Source: Gammaproteobacteria bacterium
Lineage (GTDB): Bacteria > Pseudomonadota > Gammaproteobacteria > SZUA-152
Assembly (NCBI GenBank): GCA_036507695.1
Contig: DATCIR010000220.1
Coordinates: 1 to 43,004, forward strand
Length of the DNA stretch: 43,004 bases
Direction: 5' to 3'
Shown here: in pieces, positions 35,459 through 43,004 of the stretch
Numbering within the stretch: the first letter of the stretch is position 1
Layout: each line of letters starts with the position of its first letter
Notes under the pieces: model-generated
Databases searched by the model: none
What the model saw: the letters and a program-made list of their open reading frames with translations, nothing else
What the model was told of the DNA's origin: nothing
Made by a program: the position numbers and the translations under genes

Positions 35459-35494
35459 TTACTTCAAATCACAGGCTTACTTCAAATCACAGGC
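35459..35494. repeat. Perfect tandem 18-mer TTACTTCAAATCACAGGC x2
   Basis: Copies at 35459-35476 and 35477-35494, 65 nt upstream of the iaaA start. Confidence 0.8.
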
Positions 35495-35551: not shown

Positions 35552-35717
35552 CTAGCCCGCATTTCTCACCAGGCGGCCGCTAACGATCAAGAAAAGACGG
35601 AAAAACAAATGGCTATGCATCATAAATCGAAGACACACTGTTCAGCTCCCTAGCCTATCGCGGTTCAGACTGGTCTTCGCGTCTGCTCCCGCGATCCTGG
35701 TGAGAAATGCGGGCTAG
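35552..35717. repeat. Perfect 22-bp inverted repeat CTAGCCCGCATTTCTCACCAGG around a 122-bp spacer, at the truncation point of intI
   Basis: Arms at 35552-35573 and 35696-35717. No ORF inside and no TSD seen. Confidence 0.7.
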
Positions 35718-35978
35718 TGCAACTCATCATGCCAGGATTGAAAATTACCGGCCTGACTATTGTAACAGCTTGGCGATCGAAAACGGTGCTCATGGATTTC
35801 CCGCCAACATAAAATTGTTTTCTTAGCTTCTGAACAGCAACTGTTGTGCCAGCGCCTAACCCGCTGTTTTTGCGAGCCGTTAAAAGTGAATGCCGCACTG
35901 TAATGGTTCATTGACCAATTTAGTAGTGCACGGTTTATGAGCGCAGCGCGCGCACGGAGAAATTTTACGGCTTTGGCA

Positions 35979-36941
35979 TTATGTGACCCACTCCTTATAA
36001 CCCTTGGCATTGCGCACCAAAATATGATTGTAGGAAAAATCAATATCGAATATCCGCAAGCGGGCGCATTCAAGCAGCCGTAAACCACAGCCATATAAAA
36101 GATTCGCCATTAAACGATGCGTATGATTATTTATACCGGAAAACAACCGGGTTATCTCCGCGCGGGATAGCACCACGGGTAACCGCCGGGGTTTTTTGGA
36201 GTGTGTAAAGTGCCCAATATCGCCTAACTCTTTTTCCAAAACGTATTTATAAAAAAATACCAGCGCACACAATGCCTGCCCCTGTGTGCTGCTCGATACC
36301 TGCCGCTTAATCACACGATATTCAAGAAACGCGGCTACGGCACTGCCATCCAACGCCGCCGGGTCGTTCATGGCATGGAACGCCACGTATCTAGCCACCC
36401 CGTTTTCGTAAGACTGCTCGGTTCGGATCGCATAATTTTTAACACGTATTTCGGTAATCAATTTATTGAAGTGCTGCGGATACGCAATGCGCACTTTATT
36501 GATCAAGCGATTATCGGACGTGGATAAGACAACGGTGTCGCCGCCGTTACTTTGCGGTGCGCTGTAATTAGAACTTACTGGCCTGTGGTTGTCCCTGGCC
36601 ACGGTAGCGTGCGACGGCTCCAACCCGGCCGCGGATTCAATCCAGTCATGCCACGGAAATTGGCTAGCCCAATCCGTCCGTACCCTGGCAACAAACAATA
36701 TCTTTAACGCATCAACCGCTTGTTTAAACTGCCAATCCTCCAGCCTGGGATTTCGGCCCAATTTCTCCCGGTAACTTTGAACCGTTTGCACAGTATGTTG
36801 CGCCATTTGAATGGTGGGGTGCGCCTTAATGAATTCCTCGACTCGCTTTACATACCAGCGAATGGAAGGCGTGGGAACATTATCAGTTTTTGTTTTGTTG
36901 ATATAGTTCTCCCAAAACCGGTCGATAGCCTCCGTTTTCAT
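35979..36941 (-). pseudogene. intI: Integron integrase IntI, C-terminal catalytic half lost; carries a ~145-aa N-terminal extension
   Basis: IRVKNYAIRTEQSYENGVARYVAFH...VSSSTQGQALCALVFFYKYVL...RLPVVLSRAEI...LLYGCGLRLLECARLRIFDIDF...ILVRNAKGYKE matches the IntI N-terminal and core-binding pattern. The frame stops at the GKGxKDR position. Only weak frame-shifted remnants follow (for example GLGAGTTVAVQKLRKQF). No HxLRHSFATHLL or TMIYTH box is present. Confidence 0.75.
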
Positions 36942-36992
36942 GGAATCTCCCTCGCGATTGTTTTGCGCGCAATTTAACCGTGGTGTAAGGGG

Positions 36993-37012
36993 TACTGCTT
37001 ATAAAAGCAGTA
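36993..37012. promoter_or_regulatory. LexA (SOS) box upstream of intI
   Basis: TACTGCTTATAAAAGCAGTA is a perfect palindrome with CTG-N10-CAG. It matches 16 of 20 positions of TACTGTATATATATACAGTA and lies 52 nt upstream of the intI ATG. Confidence 0.7.
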
Positions 37013-37366
37013 GTCTATCAAAATCAAACAATATGTCCACCATCTATCTTTTACAGACTTAGTGACAATGTCGATAAGTCAGTAAATTTGACACAGGCAA
37101 TAAATACAGCCGGGTAAACACCTTTTGATGGGTAAAAAATCCGGCAACCGGTGGCGAGTGCTATTGAGCGAGCACTCAAATAATCGTCCCGCTGGCTCGA
37201 ATTGTTGGCATATATAAGCTATAACAATATGAAAAATAGAATAAATCAGAACAGCAAAAGAGCAGTACCTTACCCATTAAAACCGGGTATAGCAGATCCG
37301 GTCAGCTAAAGTTGATTGACAACGTGAATCGCAATTGGCAATGTTCGGAAAAAGATTTATAAACTG

Positions 37367-37413
37367 TGTCGATAAGTCTGGAAAATGACAATCTGTATAA
37401 ACAACTATTATGT
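37367..37413 (+). other. Candidate attI region and cassette 1 junction (crossover predicted between 37407 and 37408)
   Basis: TTATGT at 37408-37413 is the exact complement of the R'' core ACATAA(C) of the first attC. It is the only such match between intI and the first ORF. A 24-nt repeat (37367-37390), also present at 37069-37093, lies just upstream. The base before TT is A, not the canonical G. Confidence 0.4.
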
Positions 37414-37428
37414 TTCAAGGAGAGATCA

Positions 37429-38586
37429 GTGTCACGTGCCGTAACGGCTGATCATGTGTTGTTCGACGAGTGCATCAGCGCTTTCCGGCCTAATGGTGAA
37501 CAACGTTTTCGTTTGCGTGATGGACCAAGCTACTCATATCTTCTGACTAACTTTGAGCTTTCTAAGGACTGGCAGTTGCCCAATTGCACAGTTCACCGAT
37601 CAGTGCGTGTCCACCTACCTGGTGCGTATTCCGCATTCATTTGTAGAGTTGATAATCCTGAATCGTGTGATTCTCATAACTCACATCTCTACGGCATAGC
37701 ACTGTCTTCGATTGTTACTTTCTCATCGGGCCGACTCTGCAAGTCGACACGAGATGATTATCTATGCAGGAGAGAGAGTCTTACAGAACACGATGCCGTA
37801 GAACTTTCACTCTTTTATCCTGTTCTTACTGCTGGCCCAGGTTGCGTACATACGTCGCTCACGGCTATTACTCTACAAAAGTACGAAGACGAATTGAGAC
37901 ATCTAATTTCGCAATTGCATGTAGTGCCTTACTCCACATACGTCGTTCTTATGCAGGCGATCCGCCTTGTCCATCTCTAGCTGTTAGCGAAGAGAGATGA
38001 CTTTGGCATGGCGTATTTATTAATCGTATCGGCGATAGAGTCAGTTGCGCAACACGCGATAAAACGGGATAAGGTGAGGAAAGTGCACCCCAATGAAGAT
38101 GCATGGTCCAGCCGAGCACAGCATGATCAAGAGTTTTCGCAGCTACTAAAAGCCTATCGAGAAGCGCGAGGTCAGAATCAATACCTTAAAGAGCGATACG
38201 TTGAGTTCATCAACACGTTTGCCCCTGCCTCTGACTGGGAGAAAGTAGTTTCCCATCCTCTTCAGGACTTGGCTGACTACGTTCGAGATATATCCCCGAC
38301 ACACGGCATGGATCACGTTGTTGAGAAACATTGGTTCGAAAAGTACCCCGCGGACCTCTCGAATAAAGAGATTGGAACCATTCTCTCTGACTCTTATACC
38401 CACCGATCGTGCTTCATCCATAGAGGCGAACAGCCCCCTCATCGGGAGCCCACATCATTCAACCGTTTCTTTCAAGAATTTCTGGATTACGATGGCACCG
38501 CGATAATTAAGCAACTTCTGCCGAATTACGATCTGCTTTTCGGGATTGCGCAATGTTCGATACGCAACTGGATGGACAGCATATGA
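37429..38586 (+). pseudogene. Cassette gene for a ~385-aa protein with a C-terminal HEPN-like Rx4H motif, interrupted by one in-frame TAG (37978-37980)
   Basis: Track ORFs 37366..37980 and 38008..38586 are in the same frame, separated only by the TAG. AAGGAGAG lies 4 nt before GTG 37429. The motif is YTHRSCFIHRGE. The helical pattern AYLLIVSAIESVAQHAI directly follows the stop. Confidence 0.55.
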
Positions 38587-38587
38587 A

Positions 38588-38650
38588 ACATAACAAATAA
38601 GGATAGGTCGCGTGAGCGCAGCGAACCGCGACCTTATCCATTGGTTGAAC
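38588..38650 (+). other. attC site 1
   Basis: R'' is ACATAAC and R' is GTTGAAC (GTTRRRY). The imperfect stem is AAGGATAGGTCGCG / CGCGACCTTATCC with a bulged base. It starts 2 nt after the stop codon. Confidence 0.7.
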
Positions 38651-38856
38651 AAGCCCGGCGGTGACTCAGAAATTACTTATTTATAGCAAATATCTCAATA
38701 GGGAAAGAGGGCTTGCATGGCGCAAGCATAAATTGCGGGCGAGTCAGGACCTCGCCCGGCACAGGCGATAAAAAGCAAGGGGTTATCTCATAGCGTTAAA
38801 GCCTCCTCTGTGAGTGTATTTTGGGTGAGGCGTGTCGCATGACACAACGCTGTTAA

Positions 38857-39904
38857 TTATCCGGCACGCCAACTGGGCGGAACGAAGGCGATGATGCGCA
38901 TGGGACATCGGCACCGCCGGCAGATAAACGCCGGGCGGATGCCAGGCTCCGGCACAGGCAGTGTTACGTTTAGAACCATCTGGATCAGCTGCCGGATCTT
39001 GGCCGCATTGCCGTGCAAGAAACCATAATCCCGAGTCCGGCGAAACCCTTTGGGCAAGGCATGCTGAAACACGCGCCACAGGAAGTCCTCGCCGTTGCAG
39101 CGCTGGATTTTAAACGCGTTGGTTTCGCTATCACGGTAACGGAACGTCACCTGGGCGCCATCATCGGACAAGATGTTGTTCTCATCGATGACACCGCGAT
39201 ACAAATAACGCGACAGGTATTTCAACGCGGGCAATCCACTGCCCACATGATCACAATGCACCACCCAGTGCGCGGGTAGATTGGCCGGCAGCGTAAATCC
39301 GGCCTTGGCGATGGCCGCCAGCATCCGCGCGCGAAACACCGTGGCCAGGTTGATCTCGTTAAACAGATACTGGCCGCGGCGCTTTTTCCACTGGCGCCGG
39401 GCGCGCAGGTAGCACCCGCCGGGGATGATCATGTGCACGTGGGGATGAAAGGCCAATCGCCGCGAATGCGTATGCAGCACGGCGGTTAAACCCAGCTCAC
39501 CCCCGAGGGCCTTGTCATTCAGACCAAAGGTTTTGAGGGTGCTGACCGCGCACTCGAACAGCAGGGCGTACAGCGTGCGTTGATGATGCCACGCTAGGTT
39601 TCGCAGCTGTCGTGGCACGGTAAAGGTTGCCATATAGTACTCGACAGGCAACAGCTTCTGCGCCTGACGTTGCAACCACTGCCCCGTGTCATAGTGCTGG
39701 CAAGCCGCAACTGCGATGCCCGCAGCTGTGATAGCGCTCGGCTTGGGTTTGACACTTTGGACAAGACAGCGTCATGTGCCCATAGCGTTCAGTACGACAG
39801 GCCAGCACCGCATTGATAGCCTTTTGCATGGCCGGTGTCATGGTGTCGGCATATTTGGCGTCAAAGCCACTGCGGTAGGTGTGCACAACGGAGGCGAGAT
39901 TCAT
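38857..39904 (-). pseudogene. IS91-family transposase, frameshifted after the N-terminal zinc-binding domain
   Basis: The N-terminal ORF has CPKCQ...HSCGHRSC. The frame then breaks. The expected continuation ACQHYDTGQWLQRQAQKLLPV is in the next frame (about 39680-39700). The core has AVLHTHSRRLAFHPHVHMIIPGG. Confidence 0.75.
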
Positions 39905-40859
39905 GCTTTAACCTCCGCAAAGCGCAGATCCAGGCCGTTGACCAGGTCATTGATCATGCGGTTGGCGTTTTGCGCCGCCGGCTCGGTGAGCTGAGTGTAG
40001 ACGGCGGTGGTCTTGGGACTGTCGTGGCCCATCGCCTGCTGAATGGCGCGCAAGTGCACGCCGGCGGCCATTAAATGCGCCCCGTAACAATGGCGTAAAC
40101 TGCGAATCGAAATACGTTTGTGGATCCCGCATGCGGTGACGATCTTCTTAAACGACACCTGCGTGCCGCCCCGGCTCATGGGTTTTTTTGCCGCAAACTG
40201 CTGCTCACTGGTGCGGCCCTCGTGGAACAACCAGACGGGATTTCGATGGGTAGACCAGTATTGGCGTAAGGCATACAATGTGAGTTCGGGCAAAATGACA
40301 TAGCGATCTTTCCGGCCTTTGCCGTTGCGAATGTGCGCACGGTTTAACTGGGAATCGATGTCACCGACCTTCAGATTCAGGGCTTCGCCCAGGCGCAGGC
40401 CCATGCTGTAAGTGGTGAGGATAAACACCTGGTAGCGCAACTCGCGGGTGGAGTTGATCAGCCTTGCCACCTCCTCAGGGGTGAGAATGTCGGGCAACGA
40501 ACGCACCTGGGGCGGTTTGGCCGCTATTTGCTCCATGCAATAGCGGCATTTCCGCCATCCCTGGCGGTCACGATATCCACCCACTGCCAGTGTTTATCGA
40601 GCACATGTTTATAGAAAAACTGCAAGCCGTTGCGATCAAGTTTGACGGTACTCCAGGAATGGGACTGTACCAGCGAGGAAAAGTAGTCTTTTAAATCCGC
40701 CACGCTGAGACGGTCAGGGCAGCAATCGAAGTACTCGGCAATGCGCCGCACGGCGCGGGCATAGGCATCAATCGTGGCCCTGGCCTTGCCCTGACGCTTG
40801 AGGGCTTTAACGTGGGCTTGATACAGATTATTGAAACGGCTTTGTTGTGATCGGTTCAT
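39901..40859 (-). pseudogene. Tyrosine recombinase (phage-integrase family), split by one frameshift near 40524-40584
   Basis: The N-terminal SAM-like part is TIDAYARAVRRIAEYF...LSVADLKDYF. The C-terminal part has RLGEALNLKVGDID, GKGRKDRYV, SIRSLRHCYGAHL and GHDSPKTTAVYTQL (R, K, H-x-x-R, H and Y all present). Its TGA overlaps the transposase ATG (ATGA). Confidence 0.75.
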
Positions 40860-40969
40860 GTGGAAAATCCTCCGTAGTTAACGTACTCGGGATTGGGTAC
40901 GGGAGGATTATCCCTTTACTTACATTGATAACTAACGATGAATTGGGTTTTCTGCCGCGTAGCGGCTTT

Positions 40970-41041
40970 GTTCAACAACCGGTTCGAGCCGACCTTCGGG
41001 TCGCTGCGCTCCCCTTCGGCGGCTCAAACGGAACGTTAGGC
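40970..41041 (+). other. attC site 2
   Basis: R'' GTTCAAC is the exact complement of GTTGAAC at 38644-38650, where this cassette starts. R' is GTTAGGC. The stem is GGTTCGAGCCG / CGGCTCAAACGGAAC. The central TCGCTGCGCTCC is shared with attC 3 and, inverted, with attC 1. Confidence 0.8.
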
Positions 41042-41061
41042 TATTTAGTTCGAAAAAGGAG

Positions 41062-41262
41062 ATGCCTGTGAGTAATCGAAAGAATCTTAAATCAGCACGA
41101 GCTTATCGCTCTCCGACGGGCGGGTGGAAGTTAGATGTAACTTTTCAAGATGGCGTTGTCGGAAACTTAAAAAGCAACGTAGACGCAACCTACCAAACAC
41201 TTGAAGATGTTGCGATAGAAATTGGTAACACAAATCTGAAGGAATTCGCAGTAGAAGTATAA
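41062..41262 (+). CDS. Hypothetical 66-aa soluble protein (cassette 3, first ORF)
   Basis: AAGGAGA lies at the start. The start is ATG 41062 or GTG 41068, about 25 nt from the cassette boundary. I recognise no family. Confidence 0.5.
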   Translation: MPVSNRKNLKSARAYRSPTGGWKLDVTFQDGVVGNLKSNVDATYQTLEDVAIEIGNTNLKEFAVEV

Positions 41263-41292
41263 ATGATATCTAGATAGTGATTCGAGGAATAA

Positions 41293-41637
41293 ATGGAAAT
41301 AGAAAAACTAAAACTTCTTCATGACCACACCAAGCACGTGACCACATTATCAACTGGCGCAATACTTATTTTGGTCGCGTTTTACGAAAAATTACCGAAA
41401 ATACCAGTGGCTCATAAACTCATTCCTGTTTCTCTCCTGTTTTTTGTAATTTGCATCTTATCTGCAACACTGGCTCAAATAGTTGTAGTGGTATCGCATT
41501 CTAATGAAGATAAAGAATATGAGAAAAATACTTTAGAGTTTACGGACAAAGTATTTTTGGCGTCATGGGTTACGTTTGCGGCAGGTATGGTAACTTTGTG
41601 CATTACGGGAATGTTTGATTTATTTATTGCCGCCTAA
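41293..41637 (+). CDS. Hypothetical 114-aa membrane protein, 3 predicted TM helices (cassette 3, second ORF)
   Basis: GAGGAA precedes the ATG. The stop TAA lies inside the R'' core of attC 3, as is typical of cassettes. Confidence 0.55.
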   Translation: MEIEKLKLLHDHTKHVTTLSTGAILILVAFYEKLPKIPVAHKLIPVSLLFFVICILSATLAQIVVVVSHSNEDKEYEKNTLEFTDKVFLASWVTFAAGMVTLCITGMFDLFIAA

Positions 41638-41712
41638 CTAGCGCGTAAACATGGACGCATTTTTCGGTCGCTGCGCTCCCTACAAATACGCCAGTTACGC
41701 TTTACGTTAGCC
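41632..41712 (+). other. attC site 3
   Basis: R'' GCCTAAC is the exact complement of GTTAGGC at 41035-41041. R' is GTTAGCC. The stem is GCGTAAAC / GTTACGCTTTACG. Confidence 0.8.
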
Positions 41713-41734
41713 ATAAATAATAAGAGAGGAACCG

Positions 41735-42085
41735 ATGTTTACAATCCAAGATATCCCAAATGTAGTGGGTTGGCTGTTTGGTATTCTCCCTGCACTAGGA
41801 GTGATGTATTGGGCGTGGTTAAGCCGGGGCGAAAGCTGGAGATTGTCGGTTTTATGTTGCGGGTTCCTGCTTGTAGCACTCGGTGTGTGGATGGCAGGTC
41901 TTTTTATAGAAATAATTGATTATATTGAAACTCTTCCAGCAGAAAAAACGGGGCGCGATTCTGTTTGGGCGGTACTGAAAAATAGTAGCGCTATATGGCT
42001 TTTATTTTTTCCGGCCGCTGCAGGGGGAGTTGGAGTCAATCTGATTTCTGCATGGCTTACTACGAAGAAACCAAGCAATGGCTAA
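41735..42085 (+). CDS. Hypothetical 116-aa membrane protein, 3-4 predicted TM helices (cassette 4)
   Basis: GAGAGGAA precedes the ATG. The stop TAA lies inside the R'' of attC 4. Confidence 0.55.
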   Translation: MFTIQDIPNVVGWLFGILPALGVMYWAWLSRGESWRLSVLCCGFLLVALGVWMAGLFIEIIDYIETLPAEKTGRDSVWAVLKNSSAIWLLFFPAAAGGVGVNLISAWLTTKKPSNG

Positions 42086-42164
42086 CAAGGCAAATTCACA
42101 CGGACGGCAAAAAGCGCCGCTCGTTCCTCGCTCTGCTTTTTGCCGCCGGTGATTTGCGGCGTTA
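42080..42164 (+). other. attC site 4, interrupted in its R' core by a group II intron
   Basis: R'' GGCTAAC is the exact complement of GTTAGCC at 41706-41712. The inner stem is a perfect 10 bp, GGCAAAAAGC / GCTTTTTGCC. R' reads GTTA and is followed at once by GTGCG. Confidence 0.75.
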
Positions 42165-43004
42165 GTGCGCCAAGCGAAGCTTGGTGCATCTTGCAGGGTG
42201 AAAGTCCCTGTCGGGTAAGGGCTAACCACCCACCCGTATCGAGTGTTGCGCCCATGGCGGAACCGAAGTTTGTTTTGTAAGAAACGAATTTCCAAAGGTG
42301 AACAAAGTGGGTGAAGCGTAGAGCCGGCCCCGCGAAGCGTTTTGGGTCCACAGAGAATTGTGCAGGCCGTAGGGCGTTCGCAGCGCCTGAAAGTTGGAAC
42401 AGCTTCGAAAAGCCAATTGAGATCGACGAGGGTTTTAACGCACACCGAAGTCAACACAGAAGCATCCGCTAGGGTAAGGATGTGAAGGATCTCCGGAGTC
42501 CTCAGACTGTGGCATGTACAAACAGATGCATTCAAGAACTTGGGAGCCCCATCGAGGCCCTGATAGGAAGACATGGAAGGAGATTGAATTGCTAGAGACA
42601 CGAAGCACTGCGGAGACGGGACTATGCTGGTTTCCGGAAATGGATTCATACTATCAGGAAAGCTCCGAAGCCGGTAAAGCGGATAAGGGCCGATGGCTCG
42701 GTGGGAGTCGGATCAAGCGTAGTACTCGGAGCGTGGGAGAGCCACGTACAAGGGGAAGGACTTGACGGAAGTACGCAGCCTGCAAAGCCCCCTCATACCC
42801 GACGCGGAAGATTGGGAATACTATGAGCTCAGCTTTTTGCGGGGAATAGCCTACAAAGCAAAGACGCAACCGGCTTACCGGTTTCGAGACTTATCGCGCT
42901 GCCTCGATGAAACGCTGCTGAGGTATTGCTTTCGTAAGTTAAACAAGAAAGCGGCCTCAGGGGTGGATCGAGTCACGTATCTTGGCTATCGGGAACATCT
43001 CACG
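42165..43004 (+). mobile_element. Group II intron (5' part; ribozyme domains I-III and the start of the domain IV ORF), continues beyond the window
   Basis: It starts with the GUGCG 5' consensus at 42165, followed by about 600 nt of non-coding structured sequence. A reverse-transcriptase ORF then begins. Confidence 0.8.
42762..43004 (+). CDS. Group II intron-encoded reverse transcriptase/maturase, N-terminal fragment
   Basis: The frame is open from 42723. AAGGGGAAGGA precedes TTG 42762. My translation is ...AYKAKTQPAYRFRDLSRCLDETLLRYCFRKLNKKAASGVDRVTYLGYREHLT, the typical RT-0/RT-1 region (LNK.AA.GVD.VT). Confidence 0.75.
   Translation, partial: MTEVRSLQSPLIPDAEDWEYYELSFLRGIAYKAKTQPAYRFRDLSRCLDETLLRYCFRKLNKKAASGVDRVTYLGYREHLT

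Follow-up and report, generated by a model that had tools for sequence, protein, structure and literature searches.

A putative IS91-family element with an attC-like end, inverted in an attC site of a chromosomal integron array

The unit first taken for the second of four gene cassettes in an integron array (37408-42164) is, judged by its sequence, an inverted IS91-family element that carries a tyrosine-recombinase gene and sits in the R'' box of the attC site of cassette 1. We analysed the 43,004-nt stretch of DNA that contains it, referred to here as the window; the region is very likely the part of a chromosomal integron nearest its integrase gene, from an uncultured bacterium of soil or wetland. 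Three ordinary plus-strand cassettes lie within 37408-42164, and two attC-seeking mobile elements, the IS91-family element and a group II intron, have invaded the array. We hold this overall reading of a decayed integron, an inverted IS91-family element and a group II intron with good confidence. The integron itself is of an ordinary, known kind; the interest lies in an apparently attC-specific, cassette-mimicking IS.

Truncated integrase gene, attI and chromosomal setting

The original prediction of an integron cassette array was supported by an adjacent integron-integrase gene with an intI profile match, an attI site and a covariance model of attC sites (R2, below). The intI gene (35979-36941, minus strand) is a truncated remnant of 320 codons with Pfam matches to Phage_int_SAM_4 and part of Phage_integrase. 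What is left comprises a ~155-aa N-terminal extension, the SAM-like domain and the beginning of the catalytic domain, but the catalytic C-terminal half has gone; tblastn with the intact relative P0002 found no trace of its residues 330-485, and the truncation is identical in independent sequencing runs. The remnant scored 178 bits against TIGR02249 over profile positions 3-160 of 315, short of the 265-bit cutoff, and its N-terminal half fits the integron-integrase model far better than Xer models. Intact relatives of 470-485 aa (P0002, P0004, P0011), which also bear the ~155-aa extension, scored 450-469 bits, above the cutoff. A functional integron encodes an IntI-clade tyrosine recombinase that has the catalytic residues as well as an additional, IntI-specific domain, a protein that the remnant does not supply; because the catalytic half is lost, the platform can no longer act in cis.

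Upstream of intI lies a LexA-box-like palindrome, TACTGCTTATAAAAGCAGTA (36993-37012, CTG-N10-CAG), directly beside a minus-strand sequence that resembles a promoter -10. When aligned with the intI upstream regions of four relatives, its arms, ACTGCTTAT and AAGCAGTA, are invariant and its centre nearly so; we infer that it may have a regulatory role. The attI site (37352-37407, plus strand) is a conserved block ending at the crossover ...TGTATAAACAACTA/TT. Conservation with four relatives (L072-L075) stops exactly at ...AACAACTG/TT and the sequences diverge beyond, confirming the predicted array start at 37408 as the true attI/cassette junction. The attI thus adjoins intI, and the first cassette is joined to it at the G/TT crossover, where the window has A at 37407 against G in the relatives, so that the junction between 37407 and 37408 reads A/TT. 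The 35 kb beside intI hold genes for cytochrome c maturation, SulP transporter genes and peptidase genes, and the intI genes of relatives occupy a conserved chromosomal neighbourhood, a location that agrees with the sedentary chromosomal integron originally proposed.

Cassettes, attC sites and a group II intron

Cassette 1 is split by the IS into 37408-38593, which holds the TTATGT start, a ribosome-binding site, the ORF and the first six bases (ACATAA) of R'', and 40976-41035. The remainder of its attC (40976-41041, plus strand) extends from the last base of R'', a C, to the end of R' GTTAGGC, the cassette ending at G 41035. Its ORF (37429-38586, 385 aa) is a single frame with an in-frame TAG at 37978-37980, where public runs and protein P0121 have TCG instead. 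The protein has 175 homologues of ~385 aa, some called Apea-like HEPN by NCBI, and R326-x4-H331 is invariant in the family. The start TTATGT (37408) matches R'' ACATAAC (38588), a fourth core pair implied by the start coordinate first given, and a homologous cassette, found in L163, pairs TTAGGT with ACCTAAC, a compensatory change. Cassette 2 (41036-41706, plus strand; originally the third) has ORFs at 41062-41262 (66 aa) and 41293-41637 (114 aa, hydrophobic), for which family profile searches, Pfam and NCBIfam among them, gave no matches; its attC spans 41632-41712 and its start TTAGGC complements R'' GCCTAAC. In cassette 3 (41707-42164, plus strand; originally the fourth), an ORF at 41735-42085 (116 aa, hydrophobic) is followed by an attC (42080-42164) interrupted after GTTA, and the start TTAGCC complements R'' GGCTAAC. 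Stop codons lie at or near R'', as had been observed: the cassette 1 ORF closes at 38586, leaving a single nt before ACATAAC (38588), and the stops at 41635-41637 and 42083-42085 fall within GCCTAAC and GGCTAAC. Extending the array, a check suggested with the original prediction, did add cassettes: the public contig L001 continues it with at least four more, which encode PG_binding_1, DUF4468, DUF4236 and BrnT/antitoxin-like (CopG/BrnA) proteins, and about eight units are visible before L001 ends, a lower bound for an array that in sedentary chromosomal integrons runs to tens of cassettes.

The cassettes would have been captured at attI, with crossover between 37407 and 37408, by IntI-type recombination at G/TT, which would explain the TTRRRY start of each and the attC at its end, with an R'' complementary to that start. 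Single cores are frequent, with 36 GTTRRRY and 33 RYYYAAC across the window, and the signal is therefore the ordered complementarity. All three pairs originally reported are exact 7/7 reverse complements (38644/40970, 41035/41632 and 41706/42080), but the first belongs to the minus-strand IS. R'' complements the start of its own cassette at 7/7 positions in cassettes 1-3 and at 6/7 or 7/7 in four L001 cassettes; by our own arithmetic, with only the purine/pyrimidine class free, the chance of this is ~1/16 per cassette and ~1/4000 for three. A further core, GTTAG/TG, lies at 42161.

R2 is a home-made covariance model whose sole input was 8 clinical class 1 attC sites. Its matches with E<1 all fall on predicted array sites, on the plus strand and with exact borders, and nothing besides predicted sites exceeded 10 bits in the scan of 43 kb. 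The best match is the attC of cassette 1 (40970-41041; 34.3 bits, E 4e-6, plus strand, exact borders); that of cassette 3 (42080-42167, plus strand) scored 19.2 bits (E 0.02), and that of cassette 2 matched weakly (10.2 bits, E 3.4, plus strand, exact borders). L001 yielded four more plus-strand matches with exact borders. By this home-made model the array therefore holds at least two co-oriented, closely spaced attC sites, the outcome the original prediction had anticipated. The predicted bottom-strand folds agreed with it as well: in all three host sites an R box and an L stem are separated by an unpaired spacer, and single bases bulge from the 3' (R''/L'') arm, these extrahelical bases being folding predictions, and the cassette 3 site folds at -28.7 kcal/mol (z -4.9). 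As had been noticed, the loop motif TCGCTGCGCTC is shared, at 41001 and 41668, with its complement at 38614; it occurs nowhere else in the 43 kb. The proposed close relatedness of the attC sites, in contrast, proved weak: pairwise identity is mostly 31-59% and just two pairs reach 75% and 80% (the cassette 3 attC is 75% identical to that at L001 8282-8368), so that several sequence types are present rather than the highly similar sites of a sedentary integron.

Position 42164, first taken for the end of the array, instead marks where a group II intron has inserted. Its 5' part (42165-43004, plus strand; Rfam RF02005, 80.8 bits) begins with GTGCG and runs beyond the window end. The intron interrupts the top strand of the attC at 42080, splitting its R' box at GTTA/GCC. 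The full intron in L001 is 2,070 nt long with a domain V/VI match ending at L001 5241, and its 451-aa intron-encoded protein (IEP) lacks an endonuclease domain; its nearest solved structures are those of IIC reverse transcriptases. The Rfam family is RF02001, as against RF02005 for the window intron, in a bottom-strand attC intron of L005, and the two IEPs are ~30% identical.

An inverted element in the R'' box of cassette 1

The IS (38594-40975, minus strand; 2,382 bp) is of the accessory-integrase type of the IS91 family. Similarity to seven metagenomic relatives begins and ends at these borders, running from (G)/TTGAAC through ...TTATTTG/TT, so that the site originally labelled attC 1 falls inside; the border is uncertain by one G. 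The original prediction recognised no family among the cassette ORFs, yet the minus strand bears Y2_Tnp/IS91 and Phage_integrase genes, and the cassette 1 protein has the named homologues given above. The IS91-type Y2 (HUH) transposase gene (38857-39904, minus strand) is split into a 71-aa frame (Pfam Zn_Tnp_IS91) and a 272-aa frame (Y2_Tnp) and matches NCBIfam transpos_IS91 (NF033538) at 270 bits (cutoff 125); the HUH Y2 transposase with N-terminal zinc-binding domain typical of IS91 is thus encoded, in a gene frameshifted here. An Xer/IntI-like tyrosine recombinase gene (39901-40859, minus strand) is split into 111-aa and 227-aa frames with Pfam Phage_int_SAM_4 and Phage_integrase matches. 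Its NCBIfam XerA/XerD/IntI-like matches are all under the cutoffs, and it lacks the IntI-specific insertion, with a 28-residue gap against IntI. Because both genes are frameshifted, this copy is dead; independent runs have no indel differences across it.

The ends of the IS, TTGAAC... and ...TTATTTG, resemble those of a cassette. The 5' end (40952-40975, minus strand) consists of TTGAAC and a small hairpin, GCCGC-TAC-GCGGC, and is kept in all copies; through TTGAAC it pairs, across 2.3 kb, with the R'' box. That box opens an attC-like 3' terminal hairpin (38594-38650, minus strand) made up of R'' GTTCAAC, a spacer, a stem with one bulged A, the loop GTTCGCTGCGCTCA, the second stem arm and TTATTTG. 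As in IS91, there are no terminal inverted repeats and no target-site duplication, and excision leaves no duplicated bases: removal of 38594-40975 yields a canonical 72-nt attC with R'' ACATAAC complementary to TTATGT, identical to the blaVIM-24 attC at 48/72 positions. The supposed attC 1 (38588-38650) is a chimera of two sites, its first six bases from cassette 1 and the rest the attC-like IS end, and its loop is inverted because it belongs mostly to the upside-down IS.

A genome search recovered ~40 copies with identical ends and G/TT borders, including copies from Shewanella. Intact copies encode a 302-303 aa tyrosine recombinase and a 349-356 aa transposase, and the recombinase gene is kept in all of them. 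In the family alignment of the terminal hairpin 97.4% of cells are paired, with compensatory changes in 9/19 pairs; among the covarying pairs is the one that joins the two IS ends (UA in 17 copies, CG in 5, other in 2). Across 98 IS-bearing loci, 67/68 attC matches are antisense to the transposase and 18 adjoin the IS 5' end; flanking ORFs lie on the opposite strand. Arrays hold at least 10 copies per genome, and tandem copies exist. The unit thus has G/TT borders and a 3' attC whose R'' pairs with its own start, as a gene cassette does, but here and in relatives it lies at R'' and antisense, rather than at attI or R' in array orientation.

Two other readings of the map were weighed. As first drawn, it had four co-oriented plus-strand cassettes, with 38588-38650 as the attC of cassette 1 and 38645-41035 a cassette carrying antisense transposase genes. 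GTTGAAC (38644) and GTTCAAC (40970) are exact complements, and a plus-strand reading of them is formally consistent because attC sites are near-palindromic. However, the block conserved in relatives takes in 38594-38650 and leaves out 40976-41041; a covariance model built from 24 IS copies (R1) gives the terminal hairpin a minus-strand score of 54.1 bits (E 5.6e-11) and a plus-strand score of 12.8 bits (E 0.94); the clinical attC model lists only the minus strand at 38588-38650; and loop motif and bulge face the opposite way from those of the other sites. We consider that map very unlikely, while its other three cassettes are genuine. The truncated integrase and the one weakly scoring site could also be taken to mean that there is no integron, and that terminators or REP-like repeats lie by chance beside a degraded phage-type integrase. 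This we find barely credible given that the N-terminal half of intI prefers the integron-integrase model over Xer models, attI is conserved, attC-model matches are confined to the array and co-oriented, cross-boundary complementarity holds, and a scan of the attI region (36850-37450) found no T-tract terminators.

Movement of the element and known systems

Borders, covarying end-to-end pairing, attC-array habitat and orientation bias are direct observations on the IS family, and from them we tentatively propose a route of movement, to which we give somewhat less than an even chance. The HUH transposase would copy the IS out as a circle, whose joined ends would build a complete attC-like hairpin, the R box existing only once the ends meet. 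The tyrosine recombinase of the IS would then swap strands at G/TT with the RYYYAA/C box of a folded host attC strand, and this exchange would account for the fixed antisense orientation. The lack of the IntI-specific domain in this recombinase speaks against such a role. So does a Victivallales subfamily whose 5' end is the same but whose flanks are mostly not attC-like.

On the same map, the IS may move purely by IS91-type rolling-circle transposition, the HUH enzyme cutting the attC bottom strand 3' of (C/T)TTG just past the hairpin, the attC-like end acting as terminator or guide and the recombinase merely resolving tandem multimers; this is a real possibility, though one we would sooner doubt than accept. 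It accords with the family membership, the lack of target duplication and the known tandem copies. IS91 insertion adjoins CTTG or GTTC, CTTG being the classical target. The flanking tetranucleotide is CTTG in 16/38 copies and TTTG in 6/38 (GTTG in the window), so that pure rolling-circle insertion suits the borders equally well, and the top-strand R' side of attC never ends in TTG, which would account for the choice of strand and box. However, 55% of uninterrupted R'' sides already read CTTG, which therefore cannot discriminate between the mechanisms, and CTTG is unenriched over this background (69% vs 55%). Also at odds with rolling-circle movement alone, the flanks of the Victivallales subfamily conserve only the G, all intact copies retain the recombinase gene, and the crossover is the IntI cleavage position. 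Improbable in our view is that the 2.38-kb unit is a passive cassette moved by the host IntI and found antisense because such insertions cannot be re-excised. Its perfect cassette architecture, with G/TT borders and an R'' complementary to its own start, would suit this, as would short sequences like the IS 5' end after the attI crossover in two relatives, but these match across ~24 nt only. PMC3458562 describes a strong preference of IntI for bottom strands and attI, which counts against this origin. So do the at least 10 copies per genome inside arrays and the tandem copies.

Compared with chromosomal integrons that have an inactivated integrase, and with CALINs, the region shares an intI divergent from a co-oriented array, an attI, attC sites of R''/L''/L'/R' geometry, cassettes mostly of unknown function with a toxin-antitoxin pair, and chromosomal neighbours. 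CALINs are clusters of attC sites lacking an integrase (IntegronFinder definition). Unlike in these systems, intI here lacks its entire catalytic half and its relatives carry the ~155-aa extension, and the attC sites are of several types instead of one species-specific type. The intron resembles group IIC-attC introns (e.g. S.ma.I2), whose IEPs form a monophyletic clade, in being a retroelement in attC just 3' of the hairpin with an IEP devoid of an endonuclease domain. Published introns of this group lie antisense to the cassettes, in the bottom strand (PMC3001079), whereas the window intron and its IEP lie on the top, plus strand in the same sense as the cassette ORFs. One same-orientation attC intron has been noted in Shewanella algae.

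IS1111-attC elements (IS110 family) are likewise attC-specialised, but use a DEDD transposase in contrast to the HUH Y2 transposase and tyrosine recombinase here; we know of no cassette-like borders or attC-like end in them. They are mentioned as insertion sequences specialised for integron attC sites in a Shewanella integron study that also noted ISShvi3 in the integron and found no IS interrupting attC sites (PMC9229058). ISShvi3 and other tyrosine-recombinase-bearing IS91 members (ISfinder) share with the window IS a recombinase gene upstream of the Y2 transposase and a length of ~2.3 kb. In contrast to the Shewanella report, the window IS interrupts an R'' box and introduces an attC-like site of its own, and it belongs to a family that lies consistently antisense.

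An IS91-type element inside the attC of the first cassette

The original prediction read positions 37408-42164 as four co-oriented plus-strand cassettes joined by complementary attC cores. By direct sequence check, all attC cores were found at the predicted coordinates, and the three core pairs that had been quoted (GTTGAAC at 38644 and GTTCAAC at 40970, GTTAGGC at 41035 and GCCTAAC at 41632, GTTAGCC at 41706 and GGCTAAC at 42080) are exact reverse complements. Single cores are frequent in 43 kb (36 GTTRRRY and 33 RYYYAAC), and therefore the evidence lies in how the cores complement one another in order rather than in the motifs as such. The position of ORF stops relative to R'' was confirmed, with the stop at 38586 lying 1 nt before ACATAAC and those at 41637 and 42085 inside GCCTAAC and GGCTAAC. 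So was the shared loop: the 11-mer TCGCTGCGCTC occurs in the window at 41001 and 41668 only, and its complement at 38614 only.

The division into four cassettes was wrong. The supposed second cassette (38645-41035), in which no ORF family had been recognised, encodes on its minus strand an IS91-type Y2 transposase (Zn_Tnp_IS91 and Y2_Tnp; NF033538, 270 bits) and, beside it, a tyrosine recombinase of Xer-like type; frameshifts have split both genes. Similarity to seven metagenomic relatives, 70–79% identical, runs from position 40975 down to 38594, taking in the site predicted as attC 1 and leaving out the site at 40976-41041. Read on its own strand, the conserved block extends from (G)/TTGAAC-AAAGCCGC... 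to ...CGGGCTT-GTTCAAC-stem-loop-stem-TTATTTG/TT. Deleting 38594-40975 joins ACATAA to CAACCGG... and restores a 72-nt attC whose R'' box, ACATAAC, complements the cassette start TTATGT. A homologue of the cassette 1 gene, 70% identical, is also carried as a cassette in contig L163, where the start TTAGGT and the R'' box ACCTAAC form a compensatory pair. Together, the borders of the element, the restored attC and the L163 pair show that the predicted attC 1 is chimeric and that its loop appeared inverted because the IS's own site was read from the wrong strand. A covariance model built from 24 copies of the IS family gave this site a minus-strand score of 54.1 bits and a plus-strand score of 12.8 bits; the same model was too sequence-specific to serve as a detector of host attC sites. 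No IS-free allele or circular junction was found in the public-run contigs. The revised map thus comprises cassette 1 (37408-38593 and 40976-41035), interrupted in the R'' box of its attC by a 2,382-bp minus-strand IS (38594-40975), cassette 2 (41036-41706) and cassette 3 (41707-42164).

The restored attC (38588-38593 and 40976-41041) has the same 72-nt length as the clinical blaVIM-24 attC and is identical to it at 48/72 positions without gaps, the CGCTGCGCTCC loop included. The likeness may be a clue to the sort of environmental array that supplied such resistance cassettes.

The integron platform and its cassettes

The integron reading was borne out by a truncated IntI-type gene, a conserved attI and a positive attC test. 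The intI remnant (35979-36941, minus strand), directly left of the array, matches TIGR02249 at 178 bits (cutoff 265) over profile positions 3-160 only, far above Xer models. Its relatives in the database, whose names point to a Gammaproteobacteria-like source, are 470–485 aa long, and three of them pass TIGR02249 at 450–469 bits with the IntI-specific region. A tblastn search of the window found no trace of residues 330-485 of one relative (P0002), and therefore the catalytic half of intI has been lost; the same truncation is present in contigs of independent soil runs. When the stretch between intI and the first ORF was aligned with those of four relatives, attI conservation stopped at ...AACAACTG/TT with divergence directly after. 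The window reads ...AACAACTA/TTATGT at 37407/37408, so the array does begin where predicted, at the attI/cassette junction. Genes for cytochrome c maturation, for multihaem proteins, for a SulP transporter and for a peptidase occupy the 35 kb to the left of intI, neighbours that indicate a chromosomal setting.

Several features of this platform were recorded alongside. A conserved N-terminal extension of ~155 aa before the usual start of the TIGR02249 match (36475-36941, minus strand) is covered by all 120 best relatives (P0002-P0120). A LexA-box-like palindrome, TACTGCTTATAAAAGCAGTA (36993-37012), lies upstream of intI, adjoins a promoter-like -10 on the intI strand and is almost fully kept in all aligned relatives, which suggests SOS control of this IntI lineage. 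An imperfect palindrome (GACTTA..ACAnTGTCGATAAGTC) occurs twice in the attI region, ~300 bp apart (~37057-37085 and ~37360-37378), is common to the relatives and may be an integrase or regulator binding site. The stretch from the peptidase gene to the intI remnant holds an exact 18-nt tandem duplication (TTACTTCAAATCACAGGC twice, 35459-35494), followed by a 166-bp MITE-like element (35552-35717) with perfect 22-nt terminal inverted repeats (CTAGCCCGCATTTCTCACCAGG). Three public runs lack the latter in their main contigs, which join 35552 to 35719 with CGGC between. In these runs it has a depth of ~300x versus ~6x for its neighbours; it is therefore multi-copy and polymorphic. In two public runs (X1 and X2), a contig joins the attI end (37410) to an attC like the 41632 site (41633), with extra differences (an insertion at 37381 and G>T at 41673). 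Such a contig is indicative of a second, related integron in these samples, one whose first cassettes differ.

For the attC test, a covariance model was built with AAC/GTT and L-box pairs from eight clinical class 1 sites (aadA1, qacL, blaVIM-24, aac(6')-IIc, aac(6')-31, aac(6')-Il, blaIMP-1 and blaIMP-18) and run unfiltered against the window and L001, a public contig that is 99.95% identical to it over 4 kb and extends it. Every match with E<1 fell on a predicted site, on the plus strand and with exact borders: 40970-41041 (34.3 bits, E 4e-6), 42080-42167 (19.2 bits) and four further sites in L001. The model was weak on the 41632-41712 site (10.2 bits, E 3.4), listed the 38588-38650 site on the minus strand only (11.4 bits) and gave no other match above 10 bits in the window. 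Predicted bottom-strand DNA folds have an R box of 7–8 bp, a short internal loop, a long stem and single-base bulges on the 3' arm. A rule-based hairpin scan (AAC...GTT, forced pairing) missed the 41632 site and matched housekeeping genes, and the covariance model was preferred. The argument that the attC sites are related to one another was weak, as they are heterogeneous, with most pairs 31–59% identical and two pairs at 75% and 80%. The integron is an ordinary environmental chromosomal array of a known kind.

The cassette 1 ORF (37429-38586, plus strand) has an in-frame TAG at 37978-37980. Every contig of two public runs has TCG (Ser) there, as does database protein P0121; the window's TAG allele is therefore either a nonsense variant or a difference in assembly. 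Homologues of the 385-aa protein number 175, occur in Vibrio, Pseudomonas, Shewanella and elsewhere, and share an invariant R326-x4-H331. The protein had no match in Pfam, PADLOC or PDB sequences, and a Foldseek search of PDB with its confident AlphaFold model (pLDDT 84.5) gave no match (best E 0.66). Some homologues are named Apea-like HEPN, and it is through this NCBI name and the invariant Rx4H motif only that the protein may be called a putative HEPN protein. Cassette proteins of 66, 114 and 116 aa had no match in Pfam, NCBIfam or PADLOC.

Extension of the contig through L001 added the rest of a group II intron and further cassettes, encoding PG_binding_1, DUF4468 and DUF4236 proteins and a BrnT/antitoxin-like (CopG/BrnA) pair. 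The intron (42165-43004 in the window, 3172-5241 in L001; Rfam RF02005) starts with GTGCG, ends at L001 5241 and splits R' as GTTA/GCC. Unlike published IIC-attC introns, it lies in the attC top strand, sense to the cassettes, and given this orientation could be spliced from the cassette transcript. The intron of another array (L005) is a bottom-strand RF02001 intron, and the proteins encoded by the two are ~30% identical. [quoted passage not shown]

The IS family in other genomes

One genome per species was scanned, which gave 80 loci of the IS family, in hosts including Shewanella spp., Methyloprofundus, Methylococcaceae, Litoribacillus, Paraglaciecola and Victivallales, with at least 10 copies in a Thiotrichaceae MAG and at least nine in a gammaproteobacterial MAG. 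Intact copies are 2.28–2.34 kb long and encode a recombinase of 302–303 aa and a transposase of 349–356 aa. Both ends were identifiable in ~40 copies. When each copy's 3' end was joined to its own first six bases, 97.4% of cells were paired, with both-side changes in 9/19 pairs; the pair linking the two ends was UA in 17 copies and CG in 5. When, as a control, the partners were shifted by one to three columns, pairing fell to only 33–38%. The attC model gave 68 matches (E<=0.05) in 30/98 IS-bearing loci, of which 67 were antisense to the transposase and 18 lay directly against the IS 5' end, overlapping it by the expected 6 nt; ORFs flanking the copies were on the opposite strand too. The paper that recorded ISShvi3 in a Shewanella integron states that it observed no IS that interrupts an attC (PMC9229058).

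Tandem copies in Methyloprofundus are joined as ...G/TTGGAC. On the chromosome of this genus (L098 2963 and L100 3004), two different IS copies stand in direct tandem, joined as ...CCTTGTTCG/TTGGACGAAGCC, and the junction is a complete attC-like site. In another locus (L019, ~60-112), four tandem copies of GAACAGCTT directly upstream of an IS 5' end could be the footprint of repeated events there. A Victivallales MAG (L115-L131, L135 and L154) holds at least 13 copies of a subfamily with the same 5' end (TTGAACAAAGTCGC...); its flanks are mostly not attC-like, with the final G alone in common, and similarity runs >400 bp beyond the transposase gene. In two relatives with intact intI (L072 1-25 and L074 1-110), the sequence after the attI crossover resembles the IS 5' end in starting with TTGAAC or TTGGAC and a small hairpin; this likeness extends over ~24 nt, to where the contigs end. 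A sense-orientation IS at attI in these relatives was not relied on, since it rests on this ~24-nt motif only.

How the IS may move, and a possible third class of attC-specific parasite

The borders of the IS fit two chemistries, IntI-like exchange at G/TT and IS91-type HUH cleavage. The model we favour, tentatively, is one in which the transposase would copy the IS out and the recombinase would paste it in, by an IntI-like exchange at G/TT between the IS's reconstituted site and the RYYYAA/C box of the host top strand. Such an exchange would explain why the recombinase gene is conserved, why the two ends covary and why the crossover falls exactly where it does. Ranked second, and a serious possibility in its own right, is pure rolling-circle transposition, in which the HUH enzyme would cleave the host bottom strand 3' of (C/T)TTG. 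Such a route would account for IS91 family membership and explain the choice of box, because the R' sides of top strands end ...CG/TT, never TTG. However, CTTG was not enriched at occupied sites (69% versus 55% at free sites), and the flanks of the Victivallales subfamily retain G alone. Passive carriage, in which the host IntI would itself move the IS, appears improbable. Were the IS recombinase to act on folded top strands, it would represent a naturally occurring enzyme whose strand choice is opposite to that of IntI.

Cross-boundary core complementarity cannot separate an ordinary cassette from an inverted transposon that mimics one, and strand-blind attC calling by annotation pipelines would put the cassette borders of such arrays in the wrong places. 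The IS family could account for breakage, inversion or stabilisation of arrays and offers a tractable system for strand choice at single-stranded hairpin sites. While the integron itself adds one more array, it is the attC-specific IS, a mimic of cassettes, that merits follow-up. It is a reasonable possibility, though we hold it with reserve, that ISShvi3-like IS91 elements of the accessory-integrase type are a third class of attC-specific parasite, 'selfish cassettes' with an attC-like site only across their joined ends, a rolling-circle transposase together with a tyrosine recombinase, strand-specific R''-box insertion and numbers that reach at least 10 copies per genome. Host IntI would be unable to excise them because R'' is the box it does not use. 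Such a reading would set ISShvi3-like elements beside IS1111-attC elements and IIC-attC introns as parasites specific to attC.
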